The translations under genes and the position numbers were made by a program. Positions 9,737-63,854 of a DNA stretch of 64,000 bases are shown here, one piece after another. Each line of letters begins with the position of its first letter. The stretch's first letter is position 1. Origin of the DNA: a virus; the IMG/VR virus record IMGVR_UViG_3300009093_000034, positions 30,632 to 94,631 of that record, one strand, 5' to 3'. Below the pieces are notes generated by a model. The model saw nothing but the letters and a program-made list of their open reading frames with translations. It was not told where the DNA came from and searched no databases.

Positions 9737-10279
9737 ATGATCGAAGTTCCAGAAACAGAACTCTATGGAATGTTTCAAAACCAACTTAAGTTCCAAGAAA
9801 GACTTCCTGAGACTAACACTTTTCTAAAGTTCCTTCCTCCGATCGATGTGGGAACTAAGATTAGAAAGGTCTTTGGAACTCTAAATGTTCCTGAGAATAC
9901 TAAAATCATCTCTTTGGATACAGCCAAAGCTGCCTATTCTTACAAAAAAGATGCTCTAGATAAAGCTCTTTTCTTTCCAGAAGAAGGAGATTCTGTCTAC
10001 TACTTCAGAGTTAGACCAATCTCCTTACTAGGTGAAGTTTACACCCATCCTTCAGATCAAGAAAGAGACTTTTTCTTAGATTTCAAGAACAATCTAGAAA
10101 ACTTCATTAACGAGATCTCAAACAAAACAAATGATCCTTCTAAAAAGATAGTTCTAGGAATTCTAGTTCCATTCTTCCTTACTGGAGCTATTCAAAGAGA
10201 GAACTTCTTCAAGGACTCTCAATTGGCTCTGTATGGGGATTGGACCACTATTGATGTTCAGGTAAAATCAGATGATTGA
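9737..10279 (+). CDS. short capsid-termini-like paralog 2
   Basis: 180 aa. The C-terminus LGILVPFFLTGAIQRENFFKDSQLALYGDW is nearly identical in pattern to the MCP C-terminus FGTLVPFFSTGIIQRKNFYKEAGLSTYGDW. Confidence 0.55.
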   Translation: MIEVPETELYGMFQNQLKFQERLPETNTFLKFLPPIDVGTKIRKVFGTLNVPENTKIISLDTAKAAYSYKKDALDKALFFPEEGDSVYYFRVRPISLLGEVYTHPSDQERDFFLDFKNNLENFINEISNKTNDPSKKIVLGILVPFFLTGAIQRENFFKDSQLALYGDWTTIDVQVKSDD

Positions 10280-10778
10280 AGAGACTTTGATAAAGGTGAT
10301 CTCCCAATCTCAGCTTGATCAACTTTACGAGAACCAAAAAAACTATTACTACACCCTAAACGACCATCATCCTTTGGTAGATGCTCTCCCTCTCTATAAG
10401 GTCAAAGAAGCCTTGGAACAAGTCTTTCAAGGTCTCAATGTTCCAAATAATGTTGATTTTCATGTTGTAAGTAACCCAAACGGATTGAATGATCCAGGAG
10501 ATTGGTACAACTATGATAGGTTTACCGATGAAGGAGAGAAGGTCTCAGTTCAATATTGGTTTAGACTTTATCCTGGAAAGGTCATAGTAGAGTTGACTCC
10601 ATCGTTCTTAGATGATTACAAGAAAGAGTTTCAGAACTACATCAACAAGAACTTAGCAGAGATTAAGAGATGGCATCCTAGAAAAAAGATGGTCATGACG
10701 ATTGCCATTTGGATTCCTTTCTGGTTTAACACTTCAAGTAGAAATGTGAACTTGTTCGGCGACCATCTCATTCATTAA
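10272..10778 (+). CDS. short capsid-termini-like paralog 3
   Basis: 168 aa. It carries an N-terminal ENQ motif and a C-terminal IWIPFWFNTSSRNVNLFGD motif. Confidence 0.5.
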   Translation: MIEETLIKVISQSQLDQLYENQKNYYYTLNDHHPLVDALPLYKVKEALEQVFQGLNVPNNVDFHVVSNPNGLNDPGDWYNYDRFTDEGEKVSVQYWFRLYPGKVIVELTPSFLDDYKKEFQNYINKNLAEIKRWHPRKKMVMTIAIWIPFWFNTSSRNVNLFGDHLIH

Positions 10779-10787
10779 GGAAAAAGT

Positions 10788-11741
10788 ATGAAACTATCTT
10801 ATGAACAAAAGATTCAAATCTTAATTGATAATCAACTAAAGTACATGAAAACTCTTAAAGACGAAGACAAGAAACGTTTTCCCTTTAAAGAAGAACATGT
10901 AGAAAAGATGGTAAGAACCATCTTCAAAGAAGATGGTGTGATCAATCAAATGTTTGATTGGACAACTTCTCCTGTAGGAGAACCATTAACCACAGATTAC
11001 CTGGTAACATCTATGTCTGGTCCAGAAGATGGGATTCCAGAAGTTACTCTTGATATAAAAACCCATACGTTCACAAAGGGTCATCATTCTTATCTAGTAA
11101 CATCGTCATCTAAACTTGACGAGATTAAAGAAAGTATGAAAATATGGGGAGAAGAAGTTCTTATTCAGATTGTAGCTGAAGCACTACGAAACAGTTTAGG
11201 GTCTCGTTTCATCAAAGAGATTCAAAAAATCATTGAGTTGAATCCTTATTACAAAAGCCTATTTGATATACCTTTCTCTATAGAAGAGACAGAGGGAAGA
11301 TCGTTTGTTAAATCGGTAGACGTTTCATTCGTTCAAAATTATGTTCATGCTGAAGCAAGTATGTACAGACAACTCACTAGAGGTGGAGTTACTCATATTT
11401 TATCAGGTGTTTTAATGGATTCTTATTGGAGAGTCCACCAGCAATTTGATTGGAGATCTGCTACTCAACCAGTTTTTATTCATAGAACGGGATCTATCCA
11501 AGGAATCCAGATGTGGAGAGGCCCAAAACATCTTATTGAAGAAAGTTCTGGTTATTTTCTTTGGAAAAATCCAGATATAGAAGAAGATAAGCTAATGACT
11601 CTCGCTATTCAAACCCCTTTTATTTTAAGTAACAGATCAAACGATTTCTCTTCTAACGAGTTCTTCTTTGACGGAGACTTAGTAGTCTTTCAACCAGGAT
11701 ACGTAAGAGAGATTAAACTCTTAGGTTTGCCATCCATCTAA
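10788..11741 (+). CDS. capsid-termini-like paralog 4 (longer)
   Basis: 317 aa. The N-terminus has IDNQLKYMKTL and the C-terminus has LAIQTPFILSNRSNDFSSNEFFFDGD. Confidence 0.5.
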   Translation: MKLSYEQKIQILIDNQLKYMKTLKDEDKKRFPFKEEHVEKMVRTIFKEDGVINQMFDWTTSPVGEPLTTDYLVTSMSGPEDGIPEVTLDIKTHTFTKGHHSYLVTSSSKLDEIKESMKIWGEEVLIQIVAEALRNSLGSRFIKEIQKIIELNPYYKSLFDIPFSIEETEGRSFVKSVDVSFVQNYVHAEASMYRQLTRGGVTHILSGVLMDSYWRVHQQFDWRSATQPVFIHRTGSIQGIQMWRGPKHLIEESSGYFLWKNPDIEEDKLMTLAIQTPFILSNRSNDFSSNEFFFDGDLVVFQPGYVREIKLLGLPSI

Positions 11742-11758
11742 CTATTAACTAATTTAAC

Positions 11759-12010
11759 ATGCCACTAAAACCTCGAATCGGTGTCCACTACGAAAGCATC
11801 AGGCCACAAGAAACCGCTGAGATGGCCATTCAACGACTTAAGATCAGACCTAAGGATTGGGTCATTCTTCCTATCATCAAACTTTCTGGATCTCAAAAGA
11901 TCCTTCCACTTAAGTTCTCAGGTATCTCAGACTCGATGACTAAGATCGAAGGACCTGGTTTTATCATTGAAAAAATGTACGATCTTTTGACTAAATCCCA
12001 AATCTCTTAA
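11759..12010 (+). CDS. hypothetical protein
   Basis: 83 aa ORF in the + strand array. Confidence 0.4.
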   Translation: MPLKPRIGVHYESIRPQETAEMAIQRLKIRPKDWVILPIIKLSGSQKILPLKFSGISDSMTKIEGPGFIIEKMYDLLTKSQIS

Positions 12011-12021
12011 GATATTGTAAG
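12008..12021 (+). promoter_or_regulatory. conserved promoter-like motif TAAGATATTGTAAG (copy 1)
   Basis: Member of the 8-copy GATATTGTA motif family. It lies 10-15 nt upstream of an RBS GAGAGG and the start of a membrane-protein gene. Confidence 0.55.
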
Positions 12022-12028
12022 ACGAGAG

Positions 12029-12331
12029 GTGAACATGATCGGAAAACTGATTGGTGGTGTGGTCCTCGTGATCATCGCTGCTATTCTGTTCTGGCTGATT
12101 TGGGGTCTTCTGACCCCCTGGATCGTCAATTCCATCCCCGCTGGGGAGTGGAAAGCTTTCATGGGTGTGGTGGTCACCATCGTCGTGGGTTGGTTTGGAG
12201 GAATCGTTCTTCCTCTGGTCCCCCTGATTGCTGGTATCGTCTTCATCTTCAAGTTCTTCGGTCAGGCTTTTGCCTTGGCCACCGGTTCGAACATCGGTAA
12301 GTATCGTTACCGTGGTCGTCCCTACCAGTAA
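12029..12331 (+). CDS. GC-rich membrane protein (promoter-gene-terminator cassette)
   Basis: 100 aa with three hydrophobic helices. Codon usage is markedly GC-richer than the neighbours. The likely ATG is at 12035. Confidence 0.5.
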   Translation: MNMIGKLIGGVVLVIIAAILFWLIWGLLTPWIVNSIPAGEWKAFMGVVVTIVVGWFGGIVLPLVPLIAGIVFIFKFFGQAFALATGSNIGKYRYRGRPYQ

Positions 12332-12350
12332 GAACTTTCAGTTTTGTTAA

Positions 12351-12380
12351 AGATCCTCCCGAAAGGGAGGATTTTTTATT
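12351..12380 (+). terminator. rho-independent terminator
   Basis: ATCCTCCC-GAAA-GGGAGGAT hairpin followed by TTTTTTATT. Confidence 0.8.
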
Positions 12381-12398
12381 GTCTTCTAGATATACTAC

Positions 12399-12413
12399 TG
12401 AGATATTGTAGCC
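12399..12413 (+). promoter_or_regulatory. conserved promoter-like motif TGAGATATTGTAGCC (copy 2)
   Basis: The motif ends 6 nt before the ATG at 12417, implying a leaderless or near-leaderless transcript. Confidence 0.55.
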
Positions 12414-12416
12414 ATC

Positions 12417-12641
12417 ATGGATGAACTTACTTGGGAACAGGTGAAAGACGGTAAGCACGAAGAGTGGAACGCCGTCCAGAAAGATCACGTTCAGGCTTAC
12501 ATCAAGAGACTCTCTGCTTTTCGTCTCGATGTGAAGTTTCGGAACCCGACCATTGAGGACTTTGAGTTCCTCGGTTCTTTGGGAGAAGCTAAGTCTTTGA
12601 CCCGAGAAGAACTGGCTAAGGTCGAACCCATCTCAAAGTAG
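12417..12641 (+). CDS. hypothetical protein (GC-rich cassette)
   Basis: 74 aa, with codon usage resembling the other motif-driven genes. Confidence 0.45.
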   Translation: MDELTWEQVKDGKHEEWNAVQKDHVQAYIKRLSAFRLDVKFRNPTIEDFEFLGSLGEAKSLTREELAKVEPISK

Positions 12642-12648
12642 GAATAAC

Positions 12649-12861
12649 ATGGCCGAAGTTCACGCCGAGATTGAATATATCCATCCCACCGAAGGACACT
12701 CTGTCCACAGTGACATCTGTCCTCCTGATTGTGACTCTGAAGGACTTTCTGATCTTGAGTATCGGAAGTTTCTTCATGATTGTCTTGACGAGTGGTTGGA
12801 CAAGTCCAAAGGCACTGGCATCTTCTACATCAAGAATGTCGATGCTAAGATTGATTTTTAA
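12649..12861 (+). CDS. hypothetical Cys/His-containing small protein
   Basis: 70 aa. It is preferred over the overlapping alternative frame 12671..12868 on codon usage and RBS spacing. Confidence 0.4.
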   Translation: MAEVHAEIEYIHPTEGHSVHSDICPPDCDSEGLSDLEYRKFLHDCLDEWLDKSKGTGIFYIKNVDAKIDF

Positions 12862-12881
12862 CCTGTAAAGGAACTAGAAGA

Positions 12882-13130
12882 ATGAGTCAGTATGTCAACG
12901 AAAACGTTGCCATTGAGTTTGCCCAGACGGGTACCTTGATTGGCAAGACCGAGCCTTCCAGGGAAACCAAGTGGACCTGGTGGGAAGTTTATACCAAGGA
13001 CGACAGAATCGTCGCTTGTGTTGTCGATGAAGAGAACGGAATCATCTGCGGAGAAGAGATCTCCAGGCAGGAACTCCCTGGATACGTTGACGATATCGAG
13101 AATGCCCTAGAGACCCTCGTGGAGGCCTAA
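12882..13130 (+). CDS. hypothetical protein
   Basis: 82 aa with an RBS GGAACTAGAAGAATG. Confidence 0.45.
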   Translation: MSQYVNENVAIEFAQTGTLIGKTEPSRETKWTWWEVYTKDDRIVACVVDEENGIICGEEISRQELPGYVDDIENALETLVEA

Positions 13131-29995: not shown

Positions 29996-30925
29996 ATGAG
30001 TGACGCAGTAGAAAAGAAAGAACCCACGTATGATGAGATCGTCAAAAGCGCTAAAGAGTACTTTGAAGAACTCAAAGCCAAGATCAAGGTCTCTAACGAT
30101 GAGCTTCTTGACCAGATCTCCACAAACTCAGCTCAGCTCTTTGCTCAGCTAGAGAGAACTGGACAGATTCAGGCCATGAAGAAACTTGTGGCTCACATTG
30201 CCTTGATTGAAAAGGAACACGAGATCATCAAGTCTGGGATCAACACCTTTGTGACCACAGATGAGATCAAAGAGTTCATTGACAAGGTTGATGGACGTGT
30301 GGTGAATCTCATTGAGCTGCATAAGTATGAGCGTGAGGTTCCTGAGAACGTGATCCAGAAGTACGAGAAGGTCAAACATCTTTTCACCACCTTCTTCGTT
30401 CTTTTCACTGACTACACAAAAGAACACGCCAAAAAGATCGCCAAGGAAAGAGATCCTATTCTCTTTGGTATGCTTCAAGACGCTGGAACCAAGGCCACGA
30501 CTCAGCGTATGTATGTGATCGGTGACTGGGAAGATGAGTATTGTGATCTTACTTTGGACCGACTTGTGTCCGAAGCCGCTGGTCTCTTTGACAGACCGAT
30601 CGCTATTCAGTTCAGAGATCCTTTGTCCCTTGACGAGATGAGAGCTAAGCTCAAGATGTTGGATGGAGAGTCCAAATCTGATAACTCTAGATGGGCAATG
30701 AACAATGTCGTGGTTACCGGAACCACTGCTTCCATGCAAAACATCTACGTTCCTGTAGTTCCATCAGAACAGGATTTTAAAGATAAGAGCATTCCTGATG
30801 AAGTTCAAGAAGTCGCAAAAGACGTTGTTGAAGAGGAAGAAACTCGAAGTCTTCTCACTAAAGATTCTGAGATTGACACCATGATTCTCCAAGAGACCAA
30901 GAAGCCTTGGTGGAAGTTCTGGTAA
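29996..30925 (+). CDS. hypothetical protein
   Basis: 309 aa. Confidence 0.5.
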   Translation: MSDAVEKKEPTYDEIVKSAKEYFEELKAKIKVSNDELLDQISTNSAQLFAQLERTGQIQAMKKLVAHIALIEKEHEIIKSGINTFVTTDEIKEFIDKVDGRVVNLIELHKYEREVPENVIQKYEKVKHLFTTFFVLFTDYTKEHAKKIAKERDPILFGMLQDAGTKATTQRMYVIGDWEDEYCDLTLDRLVSEAAGLFDRPIAIQFRDPLSLDEMRAKLKMLDGESKSDNSRWAMNNVVVTGTTASMQNIYVPVVPSEQDFKDKSIPDEVQEVAKDVVEEEETRSLLTKDSEIDTMILQETKKPWWKFW

Positions 30926-37269: not shown

Positions 37270-39267
37270 TTAGTTTCCTAGTCTAGTGATTTGAGCCCAG
37301 TCGTTAGATCCACCACCATTTGTTCCGGTGATGTCCCTAAATTGGATTGCATCTCCTGCTAAGAGCTGGAGTTTTATTGCACTGTGGTAAGTTCCAGTGG
37401 TTGGAGGACTCATCATAACTCTTAAGTTAGATCCATTCTTCACAAGCTCAATAACGTGGTTAGTAGTAGTTCCGTTCACAATGGAACATTCATATAATCC
37501 TGAGACCGGTATGGTAAAAGTACCGGCGCTATACATGTTATGAGTATCTACTACTTTGGTAGTATACAAGATCGGGTTGTTAATCGTTGCAGCAGAAGAC
37601 CCAATGTAGTCTGCATGAACAAGAGCTGGTTGTTCTGCTGTGTTTCCATTAGAGATCTTTCTGATTCTCCAGAGAAAAGTTGAGAAAGTTGACCAATCGT
37701 CTCCTGCTCCACCATAAGCAGCACCAGAAGCAGGTCTTGCATAACGAGCAAAGCCAACTGTGACGTCAGTTCCTGTGATTCCGTTGAACCTAGTTCCAAA
37801 GTCAACCGTGTTTTGTCTCAAGTAATAAAGACCTAAGTTTCCTCTATCAGCACTGACCCAAGTTTTTCCAGAGTCAACAGAGTACTCAAAGGTTAGAATG
37901 TCACTAGGTTGAACATTTCTTTGAAATCTAACCACTTTGCTTCTAGCAACTGTCAATGTTACAGGGAACAAAGATCCTGCTGGACCAGGAACTGATGTAG
38001 AAACTGTTGCGTCAGAGTCAGCAGTAGCTGAGTTAGATGCGTACTCAGTAAAGTCTGTGTAAAGATTTATATTGACTGGCCAAGTAGAGATAGGTATGGT
38101 ACACTCAAGAGAAACTCGAATCACAGTAGTTGATAGCGCAAAGTTTGCACTGTTCCAATAACCAAGACCAACAGCAGACCCGTTTGTGTTAAGATCGGAG
38201 ATCAACAATCTTGTTGAATCAAAAGCGCTAACTGAACCACTTCCGTAAGACGTACCATTGAAGATCTTAACAGCTCCAAGAACTGTACCGTTAAAGTTTA
38301 CACCATCATCCAACACAATGTTTGTGGTGTCTATCGTGTATCCAGAAGGAAGAGAGATGAGATAAACACCTGAACCTGCAGAGCCTGCTGCTGTTTGATT
38401 CAAAGTCCAGAACAATCTCATTTTAGAACCAATTCGACTCCAAGAAGCTTTTTGAGTGTTTGTTCCAAGAGTAGGGTTGCTTGTTACTCCTGTGAGAGTT
38501 GGAGTGTAAGTACTTTCTGATCCAATGGCAGCAGCTTGAATTTGAACGTAAGAGCTAACCTGGATCTTAGCTAAGTTCACTGTATAAGCTAAAGCAGAGG
38601 TTGAGGCCACATGGAAGATAACACGATAACTTAAAGAAGATGATGCAAAGAACGAACAAGAGAACTTAGCTGGTTGAGTAGCTGTGCTAGGTAGAGATGA
38701 CAATGAAAGAGGAATTAAGACTGAGTTTGTGATGTCATATAAAAAGACGGCCATGTCATTGTCAGCATAATTTGAAGAGGTCTTGTAAGACAATGTGAAG
38801 GTAAGTTGTTGACCTCTATCTGAGTTTGAGATTTGGAAGGTCTCAGAGACACCTTGACCTTGACGATTCGCCGCATCTTTAGTAAAGAGAAAATCACTTG
38901 TGAGATCTAGAGGAGTTGTGGTGTTGACAGCCACTGTCACGTTTGGAGAACCACCGGTACCATCAACTGGAGAAGTCGATGCAGCGTCGGCGTAAGTTGA
39001 GACGTTTGTTAAACCTTGACCACCTGAAGGGTTTGAAATGTATCCAGTTGATCCTGATCCACTTGAGACTGTGGTCCAATAAGTTTGAGAGGTATCTAAG
39101 AGAGGGTCTTGTCCTGTGTTTGCTTGAACAGCTTCGAACAAAGATCCGTTTCTGTTGACAATGGCTTGAATTGGATAAGGAACTCCAGCGGACCAGAGAG
39201 CAACTTGAATGTCTGATTGCCTGATAGCAGGAGAAAGGGCAATTGGCCAACCTAAGGATCTTGACAT
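37270..39267 (-). CDS. tail fibre protein with CBM-like module and C1q-like C-terminal domain
   Basis: 665 aa. It shares an N-terminal jelly-roll-like module (FTKDAANRQGQG...) with the 1472-aa fibre. It shares a C-terminal ~110-aa domain (VDTH..G.F..P..GLY...KNGS...GD.I...ITRLG) with the two upstream ORFs. Confidence 0.65.
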   Translation of the reverse strand: MSRSLGWPIALSPAIRQSDIQVALWSAGVPYPIQAIVNRNGSLFEAVQANTGQDPLLDTSQTYWTTVSSGSGSTGYISNPSGGQGLTNVSTYADAASTSPVDGTGGSPNVTVAVNTTTPLDLTSDFLFTKDAANRQGQGVSETFQISNSDRGQQLTFTLSYKTSSNYADNDMAVFLYDITNSVLIPLSLSSLPSTATQPAKFSCSFFASSSLSYRVIFHVASTSALAYTVNLAKIQVSSYVQIQAAAIGSESTYTPTLTGVTSNPTLGTNTQKASWSRIGSKMRLFWTLNQTAAGSAGSGVYLISLPSGYTIDTTNIVLDDGVNFNGTVLGAVKIFNGTSYGSGSVSAFDSTRLLISDLNTNGSAVGLGYWNSANFALSTTVIRVSLECTIPISTWPVNINLYTDFTEYASNSATADSDATVSTSVPGPAGSLFPVTLTVARSKVVRFQRNVQPSDILTFEYSVDSGKTWVSADRGNLGLYYLRQNTVDFGTRFNGITGTDVTVGFARYARPASGAAYGGAGDDWSTFSTFLWRIRKISNGNTAEQPALVHADYIGSSAATINNPILYTTKVVDTHNMYSAGTFTIPVSGLYECSIVNGTTTNHVIELVKNGSNLRVMMSPPTTGTYHSAIKLQLLAGDAIQFRDITGTNGGGSNDWAQITRLGN

Positions 39268-39662
39268 TATGAACCTATCCTAGTGATCTGAATATAGCTG
39301 GCCGTAGGACTGCTTGACGCAGTTCCTGTAGTGTCACGCACATCGATAGTATCATTGACTGCCAGACGAACAGTCGTCACCAATTGTACACGACCTGAAC
39401 TACTACCGTCAGAGCCTTGCTTGAATGCACTACCATTTTTGTAAAGAGTCACAATATGACCTGACGATACTATGCAAAGAGCTGTGATTTGATACACACC
39501 AGCTTTAGGCGCGGTAAACTTCCAGGTACCTGTACCTGTGGTTACACATGAATCTGTATCTTCAACGAGTGTGGACCAGTTGATCGGAGTGTTAATTGTT
39601 GCTGCATCTGAGTTTGAATACTCAGCACGAATGAGGGATGTTTCCATCCATAGTTTAGCCAT
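39267..39662 (-). CDS. stand-alone C1q/TNF-like domain protein (fibre tip paralog)
   Basis: 131 aa. GTWKFTAPKAGVYQI...LYKNGSAF...VNDTIDV...IQITRIGS matches the C-terminal domains of both fibre proteins. Confidence 0.6.
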   Translation of the reverse strand: MAKLWMETSLIRAEYSNSDAATINTPINWSTLVEDTDSCVTTGTGTWKFTAPKAGVYQITALCIVSSGHIVTLYKNGSAFKQGSDGSSSGRVQLVTTVRLAVNDTIDVRDTTGTASSSPTASYIQITRIGS

Positions 39663-42600
39663 TAGCTACCGATCCTTGTGATCTGGATCCACACGTTAAC
39701 GTCTGATGGTTGAGAAGCAGCACTGTCGTTTTGAAGCCAGATCTGATCTCCTACTACCAATCGAAGAGTGATGTTTGAAGAACCAGAGGTTGCTGTTACT
39801 GGAGTGGTACCAAAGTACCTCCATCTAGAACCATTCTTAAAGATCTGACAGTTACCTGCTGTTCCTGTGGTATAGGAGTTGGTTTCTACCAAATAGAGTC
39901 CAGCAACTGGACAAACGAACTTCCAGCTTGCTCCTGTTGTGACAGCACTGTGAGTATCTTCCACTTTCGTTTGAAAGTTAAGAACTACGTTAGTTGCCGT
40001 GGAAGGAACAGAGATGTACTCAGCTCTAACCATGGATGGTTGTTCAGCCATGTTTCCATTGCTGACTTTTCTAACTCGCCACTTAACAGTAGAAAACGCA
40101 CTCCAAGCTGAACCGTTATTGGTTCCATAAGTTGATCCAGGATAAATACCGCTGTTTCCTATTTCTACTAGAGCTCGTTTCTTGTTGGTTGTGTCTCGTC
40201 TTACTTGAACACCATATCTGGCGTTACCTTGAACAGCAAATTCCATAAAAGCATAAAGAGGTCCCCAACCTATTCCGTTATCGTTTATCTCTAGAATAAG
40301 TTGGTCTGTAGATTGAATCTCTCTAGCAAAGTCAACAGCGTACTTTGTGGAGAATCCGTTAGAGAAGTCTGTACTGACAACAGCAACAAAAGCACTTCCA
40401 TCTTGACCAGTTTTTTGTCCTGTGGTAAAGGTGGTGTTGGTAGTTGTTCCTCCAGATCCATCGTTAGATGCATACTCTGTGAAATCGCTTGCTAGGTTTA
40501 CATTTGACGACCATTGAGAGATCTTAGCCTGGAAGTAAACTGTGATGACGTCTGTAGACGCCCATGTGATTGGGGTGGTTGCTGTCCATGCTGTAGCTCC
40601 GTTACCACCAAAGGGGTAACGATACTCCAAGTTAAATCCGATTCCTCCGCCTAGAAGACCAGGAGATAAATCACCACCATAACGTGAAGATGAGTGGGTT
40701 CCTATTGCATATCCAACAGGCCTGAAGGTTGAGGTTAATCCTGAAGGGAAAAGAACGTTGATCTGACCAGTAACTGCTCCAGATAAGGTGATAGCTATGA
40801 CACCTTCCAAAAGATCGCCTTTACGCCAAACGTGAGAGTTTGCTAGGTCGATAGTTCCAGGAACGTTTTGGAAAGACATTTGACCGGCGTACTCTCCACC
40901 AATTGCTGCTCCAAGAACTGGAATGAATGGAGTGATAGTAACTTGATCGATGTTCATGGTCCAAGCAAGAGCGTTTGTTGTGGCAACATGGAAAACCAAA
41001 CGATAACTTGTTGATGTCGAAGCTGGCCAGAAGGTAGCTGAGAAATAGGTTCCAGCTGAAGCAGTTGGAAGAGAGTTTATTGAGATCGGAATGAAGTTCG
41101 AGTTTGTCTTATCATATAGATAGGCTAGAATGTCTCCTGCAGCGTAGTTTGTTGATGTCTTGAAGTAGAAGGACAAACCTAGAGTGGAACCTAGAACAGC
41201 CGGATCCAAGGTAAAGTCATATGAGATTCCTTGACCTTGTCTGTTGGCAGCATCTTTGGTAATTAGACCATCGCCTGTTCCAATGAGAGGTGTTGTTCCA
41301 TTTCTAGCTAGAGTAAGGACAGCTGTTCCACCAGTTCCATCAACTGGCGTTGCTGAAGCTCCATCGTTGTATGTTGCCCAGCCAGAGATATCACTCTCAA
41401 ATGTTCCATTAGAAATGTAGTTCAATCCACTGGACGGGTTGGTGAAGATGACGCTAGGGTTGTTCAACAAAACTGTATCAGGGAAAGCTTGAACTGTCCA
41501 AAAAGAGATCACTGTTCCAGTTGAGTCTTTTACACTTAAAGAGGAAAGATCTGGAATGTTAAAGGTGGTTGAACCATCTCCAACTCCATAAGAAGTTCCC
41601 CACAATGAGAACAACTGAGAATAAAAAGATCTACCAACAGCAGCTCCGTTCAATTGTAAGAGGTTTCCTGGAAGAGATCCAACAGAACCTGTCCAAAGAG
41701 TTGTTCTTCCAAGTCCTACAAGAGCCGTTGTTCCTGTGATGACTTGAACAGGCTCACCAATGGTGATCAAGAGGTCGGTGGCGTTGACAGCGATACCGAT
41801 AGCAACTCTGAAGCTTCCAATGGTGATGGTGTTAGGATCTGTGATGACTTGGCCATTTGTACCAAGATAGTAAAAGGTTCCAGGTGTCATTCCTGATCCG
41901 AAACCAACCATGATCGAGCCAGAGGCTTGCCAAACAATGGTAGCTGCAGAAGCTCCTCCATTGAAAGCTATTCCAATAGCAGTAGCTGTTGTCTCGGTGT
42001 CGTTGCTAGCGTGTTGAAGTGTTCCAGAGGACGTGATGTAGACCACTCTCTTGGTGGTGACTGCGTTTGTTCCTACGGTTCCTGTAGATGAAGCAGAACC
42101 TCCAACAGGAGTCCAGTTTGCGTGGGTTGTGTCTGTTGATGGATCGTGGTTTAGGTTACCGTTGGCGTTAGAAGAATAGGCAACACCTAATCTGTTGATG
42201 ATCGCGTATTGGGTGTAGGTAACGTTTGATTGCCAAAGAGGAAGAGACGAGATTCTAAAAGCTTCTTTGACTGAAGCTTGAGAAGGCGGTTGAGTAGTGG
42301 AGTTTGATGCGAAGGTAGCATCATCTATGGCAGCAAGACCAGACAAAGCTGAACTGAGACCCGTGACATTAGCTATGACTACGTTAGCAAACACTCCTGA
42401 AGCTGATAAAAATTTACCTGCTGCAGTATCACCAGAAGCTGGTGCAGGAACCACACCTTGAGTTCCACCAGATCCTGAATCTCCTATGAAAGTAGGAAGA
42501 TGAACCATAACTGAAGAAGGACTGTTAGCTTGAGGAATAGCAGAACTTCCTGAAAAGTTACTGAGGATAGCATTGTTTGGTATGCTAGCCATCTTAGTAA

Positions 42601-44080
42601 GAGTTACTGCTCCGTTTGAGATCGTTGTAGAAAGAGATCCGGCAGAGTTTGTTACATCTCCAGTTAAGGCAGGAAACTGAGCAGCCTGTAAGGTTCCTGA
42701 TACATCAGAGCTAAGAGAGATAGACAAGAGGGTCTTAACTTGAGAAGGCGTTAATGCGGCTGGAGTGGCTGGAGATCCCGTGTTGTTTCCGATGATAGAG
42801 TTGGCTGCCAGGTTTGCCATCTTGGAAAGACCAACTGCTCCAGCAGAGATGGTAACAGACAATGAGCCTGATGTTGTGGTAGCATCTCCTGTTAAGGCCG
42901 GAAATTGAGCAGCTTGAAGAGTTCCAGAGACATCTGTAGAAAGAGAGATCGCTAGTAAGGTTTTAACTTGAGTTGAGGTCAACTCAGATGGTGCTGCTGA
43001 AGAACCTGAAACGTTGCCTAAGATCGATGAGTTGGAGATGTTAGCCAACATTGACAAGGTGACTTGACTAGCTCCGATTGAGAACTGAGTTCCAGTAAGT
43101 GTTAAACCAGAGCCTGCTGTGTAACTAGGAACAGCGGAGAACTGGACGAAAGTGATGTTTGTGGTTCCTACGGTCAAACCTGAAGTAGGTGTTGTACAAA
43201 CCCATCCTGTTGAAGCATTTATTGTACCAGAAAGAACTAGAGAGAAAGCACCGAAGAACTCCGTAGGAGCATCCATACCAACAGATCTTGTAAGAACTAC
43301 AAAGAGTCCAGCTCCACCGGCGTTGGTGACTGTATAAAGACCATTGTGAGGTTGATTTCCTCCTGTCTCGTTCTTAACTAGAACAACATCGCCTAACGAA
43401 AGAACAACGCCATCTATGGTTAAGGTTCCACTTCCGTTCATGGTGATCGTAGCACCGACTCCTGAGGTTCCGTTGGAGTAGGTGTTGGAAGGAAGAGCCG
43501 TTGTTGTGGCTACTTTAGCAGAAGATTTGACAGACAAGCCTTGAGCTGTCATGTCAACGTAGTTCTTGGTAGCGATGTCTTGAGCAGCAGAAGGATCAAC
43601 GACTTGAGCTCGGCCAGATCCATCTCTTAGAACTGGTTGGTTTACTGTTGCTGAAGAGGTTCCTACTACCACCCAAGTTCCACCAGCTGATAAGAACTTA
43701 TGACTAGAGAAATCTCCAGAGGCTGGAGCTGGAACTAGACCAGCTGTTCCTCCAGAACCTGAGTCTCCAACCAAGATAGAAAGGTAAGCTGTGATGGCTG
43801 AGATCGCTGTAGCGACAGGTATTGCTGGAGACCCTGTGACGTTGGCTAGAACAGTGTGAGACGCTATGTTTCCTAGACCACCTGCTGCTAAAGCATCTTC
43901 TAGGTCTGGGATATCTGAGATCTGAGGATAAGGTTGGTTGTCTCTCTTGATCCCGTTCTCAGGATCAAACTCCATGGACCTACCATTCTGAGAAATGGTG
44001 ATCTTAGCTCCGGCCGTGATCTGTCCGGTTGTTTTGAGAGTACCGGTAAGGATGGATGGAACTAGGAGAGGATTTGCCAT
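39662..44080 (-). CDS. large tail fibre protein (1472 aa) with internal tandem repeats
   Basis: GDSGSGGTxGxVPAPASGD..KFLSAxG(T/V)W occurs twice. About 75-aa repeats (SQVKTLLxISLSxDVSGTLQAAQFPALTGD) occur about 2.5 times. It also has a CBM-like module and a C1q-like C-terminus. Confidence 0.75.
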   Translation of the reverse strand: MANPLLVPSILTGTLKTTGQITAGAKITISQNGRSMEFDPENGIKRDNQPYPQISDIPDLEDALAAGGLGNIASHTVLANVTGSPAIPVATAISAITAYLSILVGDSGSGGTAGLVPAPASGDFSSHKFLSAGGTWVVVGTSSATVNQPVLRDGSGRAQVVDPSAAQDIATKNYVDMTAQGLSVKSSAKVATTTALPSNTYSNGTSGVGATITMNGSGTLTIDGVVLSLGDVVLVKNETGGNQPHNGLYTVTNAGGAGLFVVLTRSVGMDAPTEFFGAFSLVLSGTINASTGWVCTTPTSGLTVGTTNITFVQFSAVPSYTAGSGLTLTGTQFSIGASQVTLSMLANISNSSILGNVSGSSAAPSELTSTQVKTLLAISLSTDVSGTLQAAQFPALTGDATTTSGSLSVTISAGAVGLSKMANLAANSIIGNNTGSPATPAALTPSQVKTLLSISLSSDVSGTLQAAQFPALTGDVTNSAGSLSTTISNGAVTLTKMASIPNNAILSNFSGSSAIPQANSPSSVMVHLPTFIGDSGSGGTQGVVPAPASGDTAAGKFLSASGVFANVVIANVTGLSSALSGLAAIDDATFASNSTTQPPSQASVKEAFRISSLPLWQSNVTYTQYAIINRLGVAYSSNANGNLNHDPSTDTTHANWTPVGGSASSTGTVGTNAVTTKRVVYITSSGTLQHASNDTETTATAIGIAFNGGASAATIVWQASGSIMVGFGSGMTPGTFYYLGTNGQVITDPNTITIGSFRVAIGIAVNATDLLITIGEPVQVITGTTALVGLGRTTLWTGSVGSLPGNLLQLNGAAVGRSFYSQLFSLWGTSYGVGDGSTTFNIPDLSSLSVKDSTGTVISFWTVQAFPDTVLLNNPSVIFTNPSSGLNYISNGTFESDISGWATYNDGASATPVDGTGGTAVLTLARNGTTPLIGTGDGLITKDAANRQGQGISYDFTLDPAVLGSTLGLSFYFKTSTNYAAGDILAYLYDKTNSNFIPISINSLPTASAGTYFSATFWPASTSTSYRLVFHVATTNALAWTMNIDQVTITPFIPVLGAAIGGEYAGQMSFQNVPGTIDLANSHVWRKGDLLEGVIAITLSGAVTGQINVLFPSGLTSTFRPVGYAIGTHSSSRYGGDLSPGLLGGGIGFNLEYRYPFGGNGATAWTATTPITWASTDVITVYFQAKISQWSSNVNLASDFTEYASNDGSGGTTTNTTFTTGQKTGQDGSAFVAVVSTDFSNGFSTKYAVDFAREIQSTDQLILEINDNGIGWGPLYAFMEFAVQGNARYGVQVRRDTTNKKRALVEIGNSGIYPGSTYGTNNGSAWSAFSTVKWRVRKVSNGNMAEQPSMVRAEYISVPSTATNVVLNFQTKVEDTHSAVTTGASWKFVCPVAGLYLVETNSYTTGTAGNCQIFKNGSRWRYFGTTPVTATSGSSNITLRLVVGDQIWLQNDSAASQPSDVNVWIQITRIGS
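42520..43110 (-). repeat. tandem ~225-nt coding repeats within tail fibre gene
   Basis: Protein residues ~325-520 form about 2.5 near-identical units. The repeat is visible at nucleotide level. Confidence 0.6.
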
Positions 44081-58919: not shown

Positions 58920-59594
58920 ATGAAAACTATCGAAAGCAGTCCGCTCAACGACCGAGACTTGATCTACGAGATCAAGAACAACCAGGAAACATCTAGTAAA
59001 AACAGGTGGATCCTTTTCAAACGCTATGAGAATCTGATACATAAGCACTGGCATGGACTTAGAAATACTCTAGACAACTCTAGGTATGTCCAAGACGTCA
59101 AAGACGACTTTTACAGTGATGCCTTCATCACCTTCTGTAGCGCGTTGGATGCTATCAATCTCGACAAGGTTCGAGACAACAAGTGGAAGTTCCTAGGGTA
59201 CTTTGGCTGGTACCTTTCAAATCAAAGGAACTCTTCAGCCAGACGAATCATCAAGAAGCACCAGAAAGAAACTGCGATTGAGATTGCAGTTGAGAACCCA
59301 AGATCTTCTAGACCAAAGAACATCTATATCACAGATAGTTTCGATCATCTGTCTTCTCTTTCTACAGAGGAAGAAGTGATCAAGAACGATGAGTCACAGA
59401 GATTTTGGACGGCTTTGAACAGGTGCAAGACCAAGATTTGGTCTTCAGTAGAATCTGAGATCTTCGATCGAAGAGAGAAAGGAGAATCGATCGGAACCAT
59501 CGGACAGTCGATGAAGTTGTCAACTCCCATCATTAGAAAAACGTTATCTTCCATGCTATCAACTCTTAAGGTGGAAGCAGAGAAATCATTCTAA
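58920..59594 (+). CDS. sigma-70 family RNA polymerase sigma factor (phage-encoded)
   Basis: DDFYSDAFITF...KFLGYFGWYLSNQRN resembles sigma region 2 (FSTYATWWIRQ). The C-terminal ESIGTIGQSMKLSTPIIRKTLSS is a region-4-like HTH. Confidence 0.55.
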   Translation: MKTIESSPLNDRDLIYEIKNNQETSSKNRWILFKRYENLIHKHWHGLRNTLDNSRYVQDVKDDFYSDAFITFCSALDAINLDKVRDNKWKFLGYFGWYLSNQRNSSARRIIKKHQKETAIEIAVENPRSSRPKNIYITDSFDHLSSLSTEEEVIKNDESQRFWTALNRCKTKIWSSVESEIFDRREKGESIGTIGQSMKLSTPIIRKTLSSMLSTLKVEAEKSF

Positions 59595-59638
59595 CCAGAA
59601 ACGATCTTGCGTTAAAGCAAGGGATCTGAGTCCCAAAG

Positions 59639-59670
59639 AAAAAGCCCTCTTTCGAGGGCTTTTTTATTTT
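59639..59670. terminator. bidirectional rho-independent terminator
   Basis: AGCCCTC-TTTC-GAGGGCT is flanked by A-run and T-run. It serves the + sigma gene and the - RHH gene. Confidence 0.75.
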
Positions 59671-59879
59671 CTGATGATTTGAACTTGTTTACCATCAGGT
59701 TTTTCAATCAAGATCTTTGATCCTTTTTGTTCTTGTCTGATCAAGTATTGACAGTACTCAAGATCTTTTCTAAAGATCTCAGAGACAGCCAAGTTCACAC
59801 TCTGATTTGATTCTTTAAGTCTTCTCATAAGACTTCGTGGCAAGGTCACGACAACCGTGACCCTATCAGGATCTTCCAT
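59664..59879 (-). CDS. ribbon-helix-helix (Arc/CopG-like) DNA-binding protein
   Basis: RVTVVVTLPRSLMRRLKESNQSVNLAVSEIF fits the RHH beta-strand/helix pattern. It has an RBS AGGAGAG. Confidence 0.5.
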   Translation of the reverse strand: MEDPDRVTVVVTLPRSLMRRLKESNQSVNLAVSEIFRKDLEYCQYLIRQEQKGSKILIEKPDGKQVQIIRK

Positions 59880-59890
59880 TGTTCTCTCCT

Positions 59891-61972
59891 TTATGCAAAA
59901 ACCAACTCATCTTCAGGCTTGAGAGAGTAAGCGGGTTTGACTCCCTTGGTGGTCTTCACAGGATCAAAGGTGTTGAACGTGTAGGTTTTTCCTGTGGTTT
60001 CATCTAACACCTCGTAAAGAACTGGTAGGTCCAACTCTTTTCCTAGAGCGAAGACGTTGAAGGCAGTGAGACTGTGAAGGTCTGCTCCCATCTTTGGGTC
60101 TGTGTAAACTCCATACAAGGTTCTATCTCTACCAGCATTGTTCAAGCTTGTGTCGATAGCTGCAATTCTTGCTTGAAGAGAAGCGTAGTCAACCGTGGCC
60201 AACAGATAGTCTTCTGTGTTTGGAGACGTGATACATCTCTTAACCAGTTCAGCCAAGTCTCCGTGAGCAGGGATGTTTTGAAGGTTTGGGTTACTGCATC
60301 GGCCTCGGCCAGACTCAGTCAACATGACACCGTAGTTAGGATGCATTCTGAAACTGTTGTCTTCAGGATGGTACTTGATGTACTGCTCCCAACCCTTTTC
60401 ACTATCTTCTGAGCTTGAGATAAACGCCTTGAGGATTGTTTTCAACGATCTGAGCTCTTGAAGTTCTTCAGCTCCAGCTCTTCCTTTTTGCTTCCAACGT
60501 TCTAGACAAGCATCGTCCGTGATGTACAGACCAACCTTGGTTCTACCGAGCTCTTCCCAACCCATGGACTCAAAAAGTCGACCTAGAGCATGAGTACTGT
60601 TGAAGTCAAAGTCTCTAGTGATGTTCCAAAGTCCAGCCAACTTGGCCTCTAGTCTTTCAACCTCACCAAGAATTCTTGCTCTTGAACTTTGAAGCTCCGT
60701 CTTATTGACGTAGACACCTCGGTACTCTATCTCAGCGAACACTCGGTAAGCTGGCATCATGATCTCGTTGTAGTAACGTTCCATAGACCATGAAGGATCT
60801 TTCTCGTTTGGATATCTTTCATCCAACTCTCTGAGTTGGGACAATTGAGCAAAGTACACTCTGAATGCCAGGATGGCGTCTTTTGTAGCATAAGGAAAAC
60901 AAATGTGCTTTGGGATCAACGAGTAGTCTTCAACTCCAGTCTTCTCTTTGTAAAGGTCCAACTCTCTGTCATACCCTCCGAATGGGGTGTAGTAGTAAGT
61001 GGAAGGTTTAAGACCATTGTATCTCTGTTCATTGATGACGTGGCCGAGCTCGACAGTATCCCCGTAAACACAAGCAAAGGGAACTCCCTCTTGCCAAAGC
61101 CACTTAACGTCGAACTTGAGGTTAGCACCGATCTGTCTCTTCTTCTTGAGAAGTCTGTTCAGTGTTGGTTTATCAACTAGATGCCAAGGAACATAGTAAC
61201 CAGTCTCTCCGTCAAATGAGAACGTAAAACAAACAATTTTGTTTCCAAAGAAACTAAGACTGTTGGTTTCCAAGTCCCAAGAGAGGAAGGGATATCGATC
61301 ATCGTCTTCATATCTTTCACAGATCTCAATGAACTCTTCCGTAGTTTGAATATCAACTAGCTTCAGTTCAGGAATATCAGGAGGAGAGAGATCATAGTCT
61401 TGAGCCCAACTGAACTGATACTCAGCGAACCTTGTCTTGTACGTATCAACAGGAAACTCAGGATTTGATGGGACATTGTTCTTCCTCATGACTGGAACAA
61501 AGATCTCAAGGAAGGAGTCTAGAGGAAAGACCCACGTGTTAGCATCTGGAGACCAAAAGTAAGTCTTATTGAAAATGATGTCTCTAAAACAATCGATGGT
61601 GATGTCTGCACTTTTGTTGATAGCATAAAGAGCAGAACCTACTGCAAAGATAGCACGAGCACCTTCTGAGTACTTTTTCCAATTGGTTTGATTTGACCTA
61701 TAAAACTTAGCCAAACCTCCAGTGATCTCCTCTTTTTTAACGTCTACGTTCAAACTATACAAAATCTTGAAGCTTCTAATTCCATTCTTGAGAACAAACT
61801 TCTCGATCCTCTTAAGTTTCACAGGGGAGTAAAGTTCATCCAATAGAATGACATAAAAAGGTTCGTCTGGTTGAATATGATCAAGTGCTAATGCATCATG
61901 AACCATGTCAGCAGCAAGAACTTTCTTTGTTGCAGATGTGTTAAGTCCACCAAAACTAAAACTAAAACTCAT
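59891..61972 (-). CDS. family A DNA polymerase, N-terminal portion (3'-5' exonuclease + palm up to motif A); C-terminal motifs B/C not encoded here
   Basis: FLSWDLETNSL is Exo I. CSNPNLQNIPA is the Pol I-type NPNLQNIP block. LLATVDYASLQARIAA is motif A (DYSQIELR). The ORF ends before motif B (RxxxKxxxFGxxYG) and motif C (HDE). Confidence 0.7.
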   Translation of the reverse strand: MSFSFSFGGLNTSATKKVLAADMVHDALALDHIQPDEPFYVILLDELYSPVKLKRIEKFVLKNGIRSFKILYSLNVDVKKEEITGGLAKFYRSNQTNWKKYSEGARAIFAVGSALYAINKSADITIDCFRDIIFNKTYFWSPDANTWVFPLDSFLEIFVPVMRKNNVPSNPEFPVDTYKTRFAEYQFSWAQDYDLSPPDIPELKLVDIQTTEEFIEICERYEDDDRYPFLSWDLETNSLSFFGNKIVCFTFSFDGETGYYVPWHLVDKPTLNRLLKKKRQIGANLKFDVKWLWQEGVPFACVYGDTVELGHVINEQRYNGLKPSTYYYTPFGGYDRELDLYKEKTGVEDYSLIPKHICFPYATKDAILAFRVYFAQLSQLRELDERYPNEKDPSWSMERYYNEIMMPAYRVFAEIEYRGVYVNKTELQSSRARILGEVERLEAKLAGLWNITRDFDFNSTHALGRLFESMGWEELGRTKVGLYITDDACLERWKQKGRAGAEELQELRSLKTILKAFISSSEDSEKGWEQYIKYHPEDNSFRMHPNYGVMLTESGRGRCSNPNLQNIPAHGDLAELVKRCITSPNTEDYLLATVDYASLQARIAAIDTSLNNAGRDRTLYGVYTDPKMGADLHSLTAFNVFALGKELDLPVLYEVLDETTGKTYTFNTFDPVKTTKGVKPAYSLKPEDELVFA

Positions 61973-62210
61973 TATTTTCCTTCTTTATCAAAAGTAATAT
62001 ATAGACTAATGTGCAAATTTACTCACCAATGCAAATAAGAAAAAGTTAATATGGATTCCTAGATTGTTCATTTTGAACAGTGTGTAAAATGAGCAGCATA
62101 TATAAGAATCTAACATAATAAGAATCTTAGTACTTAGGGTCAAACCCGGATCAACAAGAGGTTGATTGGAGTTCATGAAGTTTTTACTGGACCATGTTAT
62201 ACTTGTTTGT

Positions 62211-63854
62211 ATGGCAAAAGAACTCCGATACTCAAACGATTCCAGACAACGCATGTTCAAGGGAGTTGACAAGCTTGCAAAAGCTGTCATGACGACTCTT
62301 GGCCCAAGAGGACGAACAGTCATCATTCAAAAGACCTTCGGGTCTCCTTTGATCACAAAGGACGGTGTGACCGTCGCTAGAGAAATAGAACTTCCAGATC
62401 CTTATGAGAACCTAGGTGCTCAGTTGATCAAGGAAGCTGCGATCAGAACTAATGATCTCGCAGGAGACGGTACCACAACGGCAACAACGTTGGCCTACTC
62501 CTTGATCAATCAAGGTCTTAAGAAGATCTCCGAGGGTTTTGACCCGATTGAGATCAAGAAAGGAATGGAAGAAGCTACTCTTAGAGCTCAGAAACACCTT
62601 CAGTCTTTTAAGATGGATGTTCAGGATACCAAAGACATCAGGCATGTTGCAACCATCTCAGCCAACAACGATGCAGAACTTGGTGGCCTTCTGGCTGAAG
62701 CCTTTGATCACATTGGAAATGACGGAATTGTGACAGTAGAGGATTCTCCAAATCGACAGACCTTTGTCTCATATTCCGAAGGACTCGAGTATGATGAAGG
62801 ATACGCAACTCCGTTCATTATCAACGACCCTAGAGGAATTGTTACTTATCAGAACCCAAGGTTCTTGCTCATTGATAGTGAGCTGAACAGCTTTCACATC
62901 ATAGTCAAGATACTCGAGAAGTGGACGAGAGACGGTTGTAAGTATCCTTTCGTCATTGTTGCTACTGGGTTTTCTAACGAAGTTCTGACGACTATCGGTC
63001 AGAATGTTCAAGGTGGAAAAAGACCTATAGCTTGTTTCAAAGCTCCAGGTTTTGGAGAGAAGAAACAGGTTTACTTGAAGGACTTGGCTGCTGCTTTGGG
63101 AGCATCCATCTTTACACAACAAGAGGTTGGTCTTCAACTAGCTCAGTTCCAAGAAGAACACCTTGGAAAAGCTGGTTCCTTGAAGCTTACCTCAAACAGA
63201 ACAACCATCGTTGATCCTAAGGGAGACGGAGAGGCATTTGAAAAACATGTTCAAGAACTTAGAGAGATGGAAGCAGAGTCTACTTCAGGCTTTGAAAAAG
63301 AACTTCTCCAAGAGCGACTCGCTAAACTCGCTGGTGGAGTTGCTGTGGTTCACGTTGGTGCTTCAACCGAAGTTGAACTCAAGGAAAAGAAACACAGGGT
63401 TGAAGACGCTCTGAATGCAACTAGAGCTGCTCTAGAAGAAGGTATTGTCATCGGTGGAGGAAACACACTCCTTAGAGTGGCAAAGCTTCTTTCTCAAAAC
63501 ATCAAGAACCTTGGATCACCAGGTTTTATGGCTGGTTACAACGCAGTGGTAAGAGGTCTTAGAGAACCATTCTATCAGATCGCTTATAACGCTGGAAAGT
63601 CTCTAGAAGATATCGTCGAAGCCGTTCCAATCATTACCAAGACTGGAAGCACCAACATGGGTTGGAACGCTTTGACTGATACCTTTGGAGACCTATATGA
63701 AGAGGGAGTTATCGACCCCATCAAGGTCACTCGATATGCCTTAGAACACGCAGCTTCTGTTGCTGCTATCTTCATGGTGGTTGAGTGTGCTATCATCGAT
63801 CAAGGAAACATCCGTGTCGTACCTAATGGCTCGGAGTTAATGGGAGAATTCTAA
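62211..63854 (+). CDS. groEL: GroEL/Cpn60 chaperonin homolog
   Basis: From the internal ATG at 62211: MAKELRYSNDSRQRMFKGVDKLAKAVMTTLGPRGRTVII...ITKDGVTVAREIEL...NDLAGDGTTTATTLA matches the GroEL N-terminus and the ATP-binding DGTTTAT block. Confidence 0.85.
   Translation: MAKELRYSNDSRQRMFKGVDKLAKAVMTTLGPRGRTVIIQKTFGSPLITKDGVTVAREIELPDPYENLGAQLIKEAAIRTNDLAGDGTTTATTLAYSLINQGLKKISEGFDPIEIKKGMEEATLRAQKHLQSFKMDVQDTKDIRHVATISANNDAELGGLLAEAFDHIGNDGIVTVEDSPNRQTFVSYSEGLEYDEGYATPFIINDPRGIVTYQNPRFLLIDSELNSFHIIVKILEKWTRDGCKYPFVIVATGFSNEVLTTIGQNVQGGKRPIACFKAPGFGEKKQVYLKDLAAALGASIFTQQEVGLQLAQFQEEHLGKAGSLKLTSNRTTIVDPKGDGEAFEKHVQELREMEAESTSGFEKELLQERLAKLAGGVAVVHVGASTEVELKEKKHRVEDALNATRAALEEGIVIGGGNTLLRVAKLLSQNIKNLGSPGFMAGYNAVVRGLREPFYQIAYNAGKSLEDIVEAVPIITKTGSTNMGWNALTDTFGDLYEEGVIDPIKVTRYALEHAASVAAIFMVVECAIIDQGNIRVVPNGSELMGEF

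Follow-up and report, generated by a model that had tools for sequence, protein, structure and literature searches.

The 64,000-nucleotide (nt) stretch of viral DNA analysed here (the window; positions 30,632 to 94,631 of IMG/VR record IMGVR_UViG_3300009093_000034) encodes on its minus strand a protein of 693 amino acids (aa) that is very probably the functional N-terminal subunit of a family A DNA polymerase (PolA) made of separately encoded polypeptides. Enzymes of this family, which serve as biotechnological workhorses, are single chains in the textbooks. The protein studied here is a partial member of this family, one subunit of the enzyme, and it ends between the catalytic motifs A and B. 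The window corresponds to positions 49,387-113,386, reversed, of the 305,853-bp ENA contig ERZ27252312:k141_4393686.

The open reading frame (ORF) matches the DNA polymerases of PHROG 17 (E 6e-64), and the positions of its domains are collected in Table 1. A uracil-DNA-glycosylase (UDG)-like fold precedes the exonuclease, as is the case in PolAs with an incorporated UDG-like domain, and the same chain carries both the exonuclease and 218 residues of the polymerase domain. The exonuclease motif DLETNS, the NPNLQNIP block (aa 561-568), and motif A (VDYASLQARI) all lie where the original prediction, made from the sequence alone, had placed them. In an alignment with 31 homologues, the exonuclease residues D233, E235, Y361, and D365 are invariant, and so is D595 of motif A. 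The Pfam family DNA_pol_A (PF00476) covers the ORF with positions 3-197 of its 381 only, so the half of the profile that carries motifs B (the O-helix) and C (HDE) is missing from this polypeptide. The stop had been predicted about 60 residues after motif A, but it actually lies 90 residues past the motif A block and 98 past the catalytic Asp595. When the family profile is aligned to the Klenow chain it spans positions 8-419, the last of them corresponding to about residue 742 of Pol I, and therefore the polypeptide is cut in the fingers, in the loop before the O-helix. That motifs B and C are absent and that the gene has no continuation, as originally claimed, was confirmed: a regular-expression scan of the six frames of the window gave no motif B or motif C pattern, a hidden Markov model (HMM) of the C-terminal half gave no match in the window with filters off and E up to 10, and the three frames downstream of the TAA are all full of stops.

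This end of the protein is conserved. The identical protein has been recovered from two independent assemblies, the ENA contig mentioned above and a Logan contig, and a search of 5.8 billion proteins revealed ~35 homologues of 666-731 aa, whose identity to the ORF goes from 72% down to 32%. Among the 31 that were aligned (33-72% identity), 29 keep an Asp equivalent to D688 and have their stop 0-9 residues (most often 3) beyond it; in the ORF itself this distance is 5 residues. Compared with the DNA of the 72% identical relative, the proportion of nonsynonymous differences (pN) over the whole gene is 0.18 and that of synonymous ones (pS), which is saturated, is 0.83. The last 50 residues are the most constrained, with the lowest pN of the protein (pN 0.10, pS 0.68, dN/dS ~0.06). 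The gene is thus under purifying selection, which is strongest on the tail. Unsplit relatives (P0027, P0032, P0039, and P0040) align over the whole ORF and continue into the R..AK..NF..FG and HD residues of motifs B and C.

The missing half exists as a protein of its own in related viruses. Two word-indexed searches with C-terminal-half profiles matched 88 and 71 proteins, nearly all of them 240-350 aa long and limited to the back part of DNA_pol_A. When 1.84 billion representatives were searched exhaustively with HMMER, which gives cluster representatives only, 264 proteins were returned at E<=1e-30, and stand-alone C-terminal halves (hereafter C-halves) make up about a third of the top 150. 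Most C-halves start with the sequence M-x-(L/C/Y)-K-I-x-(K/R), located ~30 residues before motif B. The Arg and Lys of motif B, the N...Q..E residues, and the HD of motif C are kept in 92-100% of 236 C-half sequences, indicating that these proteins are functional-looking.

HMM scans of loci taken from viral contigs revealed a variety of gene arrangements. In ~19 more distant loci the two halves are fused. In loci L107-L111, the N-half is followed by an adjacent C-half; in L109 the stop of one gene overlaps the start of the next (ATGTATAA), and in L110 the two are separated by 30 nt that contain a ribosome-binding site. The C-half lies 0.5 kb downstream of the N-half in L015 and 4 kb downstream in L011 (a 284.7-kb contig), and in the pairs L012/L127 and L013/L129 a distance of 38.2 kb separates the halves, which share both contig and strand. 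The N-half P0028 and the C-half P0153 are both listed on a 255,525-bp contig, and on two large contigs in another assembly. In L115-L121 the order is permuted, the C-half being encoded upstream of the N-half on the same strand (in L121, at 9974-10882 and 10895-13018, respectively), which excludes a frameshift, an intron, or read-through in these loci; in L115-L120 the N-part also lacks motif A. The lineage has been broken at other sites as well, namely behind the exonuclease, where the thumb begins, and ahead of motif A. Three loci (L112:14101-14481(-), L113:14101-14481(-), and L114:6022-6402(-)) contain a free-standing ORF of ~124 aa with motif A only, bounded by an M-G-L-K-I-T-K head and an acidic tail. 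With motif A in an ORF that has its own head and tail, these loci would encode three-piece polymerases, although no piece preceding motif A could be located there. P0027 (1023 aa) is a natural in-frame fusion across the break, and P0049-P0053, which are 73-76% identical to its C-half, stand alone; P0027 is apparently a secondary re-fusion. With respect to the surroundings of these genes, the stand-alone C-half of the 255-kb relative has, at a distance of 3 kb, a TnpB / IS605 OrfB-type gene (L097:5798-7252) that might act in relocating genes, and two genes for response-regulator receiver domains (L124:12119-13004) are found directly downstream of the N-half in the 292-kb relative encoding P0014 (contig ERZ21869602:ctg94312l, 292,485 bp).

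The last 50 residues of the ORF form a tail that has no counterpart in the unsplit P0039 and P0040. It is present in all split relatives and in the fused P0027, and it accompanies a C-half in every pair found. Four of its residues (G677, A681, L684, and D688) are nearly invariant in the alignment of 31 homologues. The tails are net acidic in 30 of 31 N-halves, and the heads of the C-halves are net basic in 90 of 99. The same head, and the same tail where it is seen, occurs at at least two different break sites of the lineage.

Structural models were obtained for the N-half alone and for the fused P0027. In the former, the tail is predicted to form a four-strand β-meander with a predicted local distance difference test (pLDDT) score of 75-87. 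The UDG-like and exonuclease domains are intact and modelled with confidence, and the chain models well except for the motif A region (aa 590-650, pLDDT 42-59). P0027 is predicted to adopt a complete Klenow-like PolA fold (pLDDT 88; predicted template modelling score, pTM, 0.87), with template modelling (TM) scores of 0.78-0.85 to the large fragments of Klenow, Bst, and Taq. In this model the junction runs between two long strands, 658-668, at about the start of the tail, and 706-717, at about the head of the C-half. That a fusion across the junction is tolerated suggests that the last residues of the tail lie near the first ones of the head in the assembled enzyme.

According to these data, it is proposed that the polymerase would assemble from two chains without covalent joining. 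The N-terminal subunit would bring the UDG-like domain, the proofreading exonuclease, the thumb, the palm strand with motif A, and the first helices of the fingers. A second protein of ~240-350 aa, whose gene is expected elsewhere in the ~306-kb phage genome, would bring the O-helix (R, K, NF..FG), the remaining fingers, and the palm hairpin with motif C (HD). Besides the large interface between palm and fingers, the 50-residue acidic tail and the basic strand of the C-terminal subunit (M-x-K-I-x-K/R, followed by an I-T-x-E-E-F helix) would pair as a β-sheet, which would re-close the fingers.

Several results weigh against this proposal. No C-half was found in positions 39,533-122,227 of the contig, which amount to 82.7 kb or 27% of its length. 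This part comprises the window plus L001, L104, and L106; neither tblastn with the C-halves of unsplit relatives nor HMM searches of the window, L001, L104, L105, and L106 gave a match, and the genes at the window ends extended the view of the contig only to its positions 39.5-41.4 kb and 113.4-122.2 kb. Likewise, the word-indexed profile searches gave no C-half protein from the 305,853-bp contig. In the nearest sub-clade (38-72% identity; L004-L010, L028, L030, and L124-L126), no C-half lies within 10 kb of the N-half and none has been placed on the same contig, and all pairings within one genome involve N-halves only 31-37% identical to the ORF. As for the contact between the chains, the junction stretch of the P0027 model is of low confidence (pLDDT 42-56), and the pairing of tail and head is derived from sequence and from models of single chains. 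The members of 30 C-half clusters that were checked include none on a contig of matching length, an exact 50-mer from the contig edge had no match in JGI metagenomes, and P0002 and P0103 come from different assemblies. Almost no neighbours are shared between this genome and its relatives, and thus the position of the partner gene is not predictable. The original suggestion that the C-terminal half might be encoded elsewhere in the genome is strongly supported by comparison, as relatives have N-halves and stand-alone C-halves on one contig, anywhere from overlapping to 38 kb apart, and is not borne out in the 27% of this contig that was searched.

The absence of a C-half from these 82.7 kb and from the 10 kb around any of 14 sub-clade relatives, together with the integrity of the UDG-like and exonuclease domains, would fit an orphan N-half. 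The sub-clade would have lost its C-half, and the protein would either work by itself in proofreading or repair, through its UDG-like and exonuclease domains, or assist another polymerase as an accessory subunit; what is left of the polymerase domain would be kept as a DNA-binding scaffold. This alternative is unlikely, since the polymerase part, and above all the tail, is as constrained as the exonuclease, the Asp of motif A does not vary, the tail found here goes with a C-half wherever a pair is known, and only 27% of the genome was searched in a lineage whose halves may lie 38 kb and more apart. A stop within the catalytic domain of a normally single-chain enzyme could also denote a pseudogene, a frameshift introduced by sequencing or assembly, or a continuous gene hidden by an intron or by recoding, and the original prediction had in fact offered a truncated remnant as one reading and had considered a sequencing frameshift at ~59890 that would restore a longer frame. 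These explanations are extremely improbable. Of 31 homologues, some as distant as 33% identity, 29 share the stop position, selection is purifying and includes the tail, the catalytic residues are invariant, and the ENA and Logan assemblies agree, so the gene is neither a pseudogene nor the product of an assembly frameshift. Moreover, no longer frame exists, a probable terminator follows 230 nt downstream, and the gene order is permuted in relatives; frameshift, read-through, and intron were all rejected on the closed frames, the conserved stop, and the permuted order.

A different way of reuniting the halves would be protein trans-splicing by a split intein, for which the lineage itself offers examples. 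P0036 holds a contiguous mini-intein (RFKSKA↓CFIEG...RCGQ↓CNFG; arrows mark the intein junctions), several C-halves start with a C-intein fragment, and the locus L016:4359-8728 encodes an N-extein, a 105-aa N-intein with Cys1 and TKDH, a free-standing ORF of 387 aa that is a possible candidate homing endonuclease, a C-intein ending in ...IIGQ↓C inside motif B, and the C-extein. In addition, the tail plus the head resembles the centre of these inteins. However, the intact inteins sit inside motif B (K-x↓C/S-x-NFG), ~35 residues downstream of the break studied here, and the ORF has none of the features of an N-intein: it lacks the extein segment R..AK, the junction Cys/Ser, block A, and block B (T-x-x-H), its tail contains neither Cys nor TxxH, and it gives no match to Pfam Hint or intein families. 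Downstream of the ORF there is no free-standing homing endonuclease gene between two parts, but the 71-aa ORF without family match, the probable terminator, and a convergent gene, and no C-part lies within 10 kb. The intein-less C-halves, for their part, lack the ...HN↓C end of blocks F/G. Trans-splicing is consequently very unlikely in this protein. The check for inteins that the original prediction had called for in related phages thus turned up both contiguous and split ones, in motif B and not at this break.

The likeness between the tail and head and the inteins may nevertheless reveal their origin. Joined tail and head sequences match no Pfam family or intein, in a test that is insensitive because the joined L016 intein, used as a positive control, itself scores weakly. 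By hhalign, the joined segments aligned to positions 55-112 of the inteins of the family (score 28.0, P ~1e-4, probability 56%), with the break between tail and head coinciding with the point at which the L016 intein is split. The highest score among 200 column shuffles was 14.2, and that of the reversed profile was 9.5. An independent profile of tails only (31 N-halves) scored 18.0 on the same intein region, compared with a shuffle maximum of 15.3. Both segments are short and of biased composition, and the intact inteins occupy a different site in the host protein. The likeness to the centre of a mini-intein without its catalytic ends is therefore weak but reproducible, and is considered suggestive at the sequence level. 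A tentative hypothesis, which we hold to be somewhat less probable than its contrary, is that the acidic tail and the basic M-x-K-I-x-K head are the splicing-dead relic of a split mini-intein, now serving as a portable, non-covalent docking clamp. Such a relic would keep only the strands bordering the break point of the intein.

Fractured genes and split polymerases are already known, and the PolA described here, cut between motifs A and B, belongs with them as a variant. The family B polymerase gp43 of T4-like phages, split into 43A/43B, and the nrdA gene of phage Aeh1 are intein-less fractured genes, and it has been proposed that the parts of such genes later dislocate to separate loci (Dassa et al. 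2009, PMC2677866). As in these cases, an essential replication enzyme is broken in its catalytic core into two ORFs, with the reassembly without splicing proposed here. In contrast, the present enzyme belongs to family A, is broken between motifs A and B, has no endonuclease gene at the break in the window and no C-half within 10 kb, and has relatives with permuted order and with three pieces. Within family A, the separation of exonuclease and polymerase in T7-like cyanophages (S-SBP1 / S-TIP37 type; PMC12695635) has been called the first split in PolAs (Czernecki et al. 2023, PMC10201439), and this domain boundary is the only natural split noted in a family-wide survey of 2023. Both systems consist of a PolA made as two polypeptides predicted to re-associate, but the cyanophage genes are adjacent and break at the domain boundary, whereas the cut reported here goes through the fingers. 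The cultured OM43 phages MEP401 and MEP402 also hold a two-ORF PolA, in which the exonuclease and the N-part of DNA_pol_A are followed by the C-part (PMC10580990). When MEP401 was checked, its break was found before motif A (between Pfam profile positions 132 and 154), with one 77-aa ORF between the adjacent halves, while the ORF of the window, which has no partner next to it, breaks after motif A, at profile position ~197.

Canonical split-intein fractured genes (PMC2677866) and the cyanobacterial split DnaE have an equivalent in the same lineage, the L016 locus. The tail and head resemble the strands beside the break of split inteins and have complementary charges, but they differ in lacking the catalytic intein blocks and in their position in the host protein, and no splicing is expected. 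In jumbo phages of group 2.2, a minimal Pol III alpha is divided between two stand-alone proteins whose genes lie far apart (Iyer et al. 2021, PMC7824862), which is also a split of the catalytic module of a jumbo-phage polymerase, although in family C instead of A and with unrelated sequences. Pfu polymerase engineered with a split at the tip of the fingers stays active as two chains (PMC3061061); this is a laboratory construct of family B, cut at a different helix. The literature on PaBG-type phages (PMC7412058) was considered as a precedent for the split and rejected, as it is relevant to the UDG-like domain only. No PolA interrupted between these two motifs, A and B, and encoded by dislocated, permuted, or three-piece genes was found in the literature compared.

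Regarding the surroundings of the gene, the TAA (59891-59893) is followed by an AGGAG and, 11 nt after the stop, by an ATG at 59879, as originally described. The label of ribbon-helix-helix (RHH) protein given to the resulting 71-aa ORF goes back only to the strand-helix look of its N-terminus and found no support in Pfam or PHROG. This ORF is absent from the locus of the 72% identical relative (L099/L100), where a different, convergent gene of 161 aa takes its place, and was not found in the other loci; it was consequently rejected as a conserved partner of the polymerase. The hairpin that follows is, judging from its sequence, a probable bidirectional terminator ending both the polymerase operon and a convergent gene for a 224-aa protein (58920-59594, plus strand). 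The latter shows a weak similarity to sigma factors of phages (phrog_1740, E 3.7e-5), and its homologues lie near the N-half in several relatives, in differing positions. The promoter candidate ~140 nt upstream of the ORF constitutes weak evidence, such sites not being above shuffle expectation in the region.

Table 1. Features of the polymerase gene and its immediate surroundings (nucleotide positions in the window)
Feature	Residues	Window positions	Strand	Details
Probable gene for the N-terminal subunit of a split PolA	1-693	59891..61972	minus	693 aa + stop
N-terminal domain with UDG-like fold	1-200	61373..61972	minus	
3'-5' exonuclease domain	208-373	60854..61351	minus	Pfam PF01612, E 1.9e-6
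Exo I motif	233-238	61259-61276	minus	DLETNS
Thumb, start of palm with motif A, first fingers helices	426-643	60044..60697	minus	PF00476
Motif A	594-603	60164-60193	minus	VDYASLQARI
Acidic β-rich tail, proposed docking element for the C-terminal subunit	644-693	59894..60043	minus	
71-aa ORF coupled to the polymerase stop		59664..59879	minus	No Pfam or PHROG match
GC-rich hairpin, probable terminator		59638..59665		12-bp stem, A/T runs on both sides; terminator scan and sequence
Sigma-70-like promoter candidate		62115..62143	minus	TTGACC-17-TATTAT; consensus scan, 10/12 matches

Divergent from the polymerase gene lies a gene for a Cpn60/GroEL-type chaperonin (62175-63854, plus strand; Pfam E 2e-66). 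This gene, together with those for a Gp23-like capsid protein, tail-collar and C1q fibre proteins, and an RNA ligase, indicates that the window comes from a jumbo tailed phage. None of the deposited phages is close, the best match being 26% identical. The fibre-like proteins, of 665 aa (37270-39267, minus strand) and 1472 aa (39662-44080, minus strand), hold C-terminal C1q-like domains, the larger one also with a phage tail-collar domain. Just outside the window, the source contig carries genes for homologues of FliM (PF02154) and FliN (PF01052, FliMN_C), two proteins of the flagellar switch, adjoining a NUDIX hydrolase (L104:13155-14293), an unusual cargo for a phage.

In the split lineage, both parts of the polymerase stay under selection even when their genes lie far apart or in reversed order. 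For annotation, this means that ORFs of this kind are not to be taken as pseudogenes, and that their partner should be sought. The lineage also provides natural, evolution-tested split sites and docking sequences for the engineering of two-piece polymerases, and it represents a testable case for the maturation of fractured genes after the decay of the mobile element that broke them. If the tail and head are indeed the relic of a split intein, such a portable clamp could allow the polymerase to be cut into two or three pieces, with its genes permuted or scattered over tens of kb.

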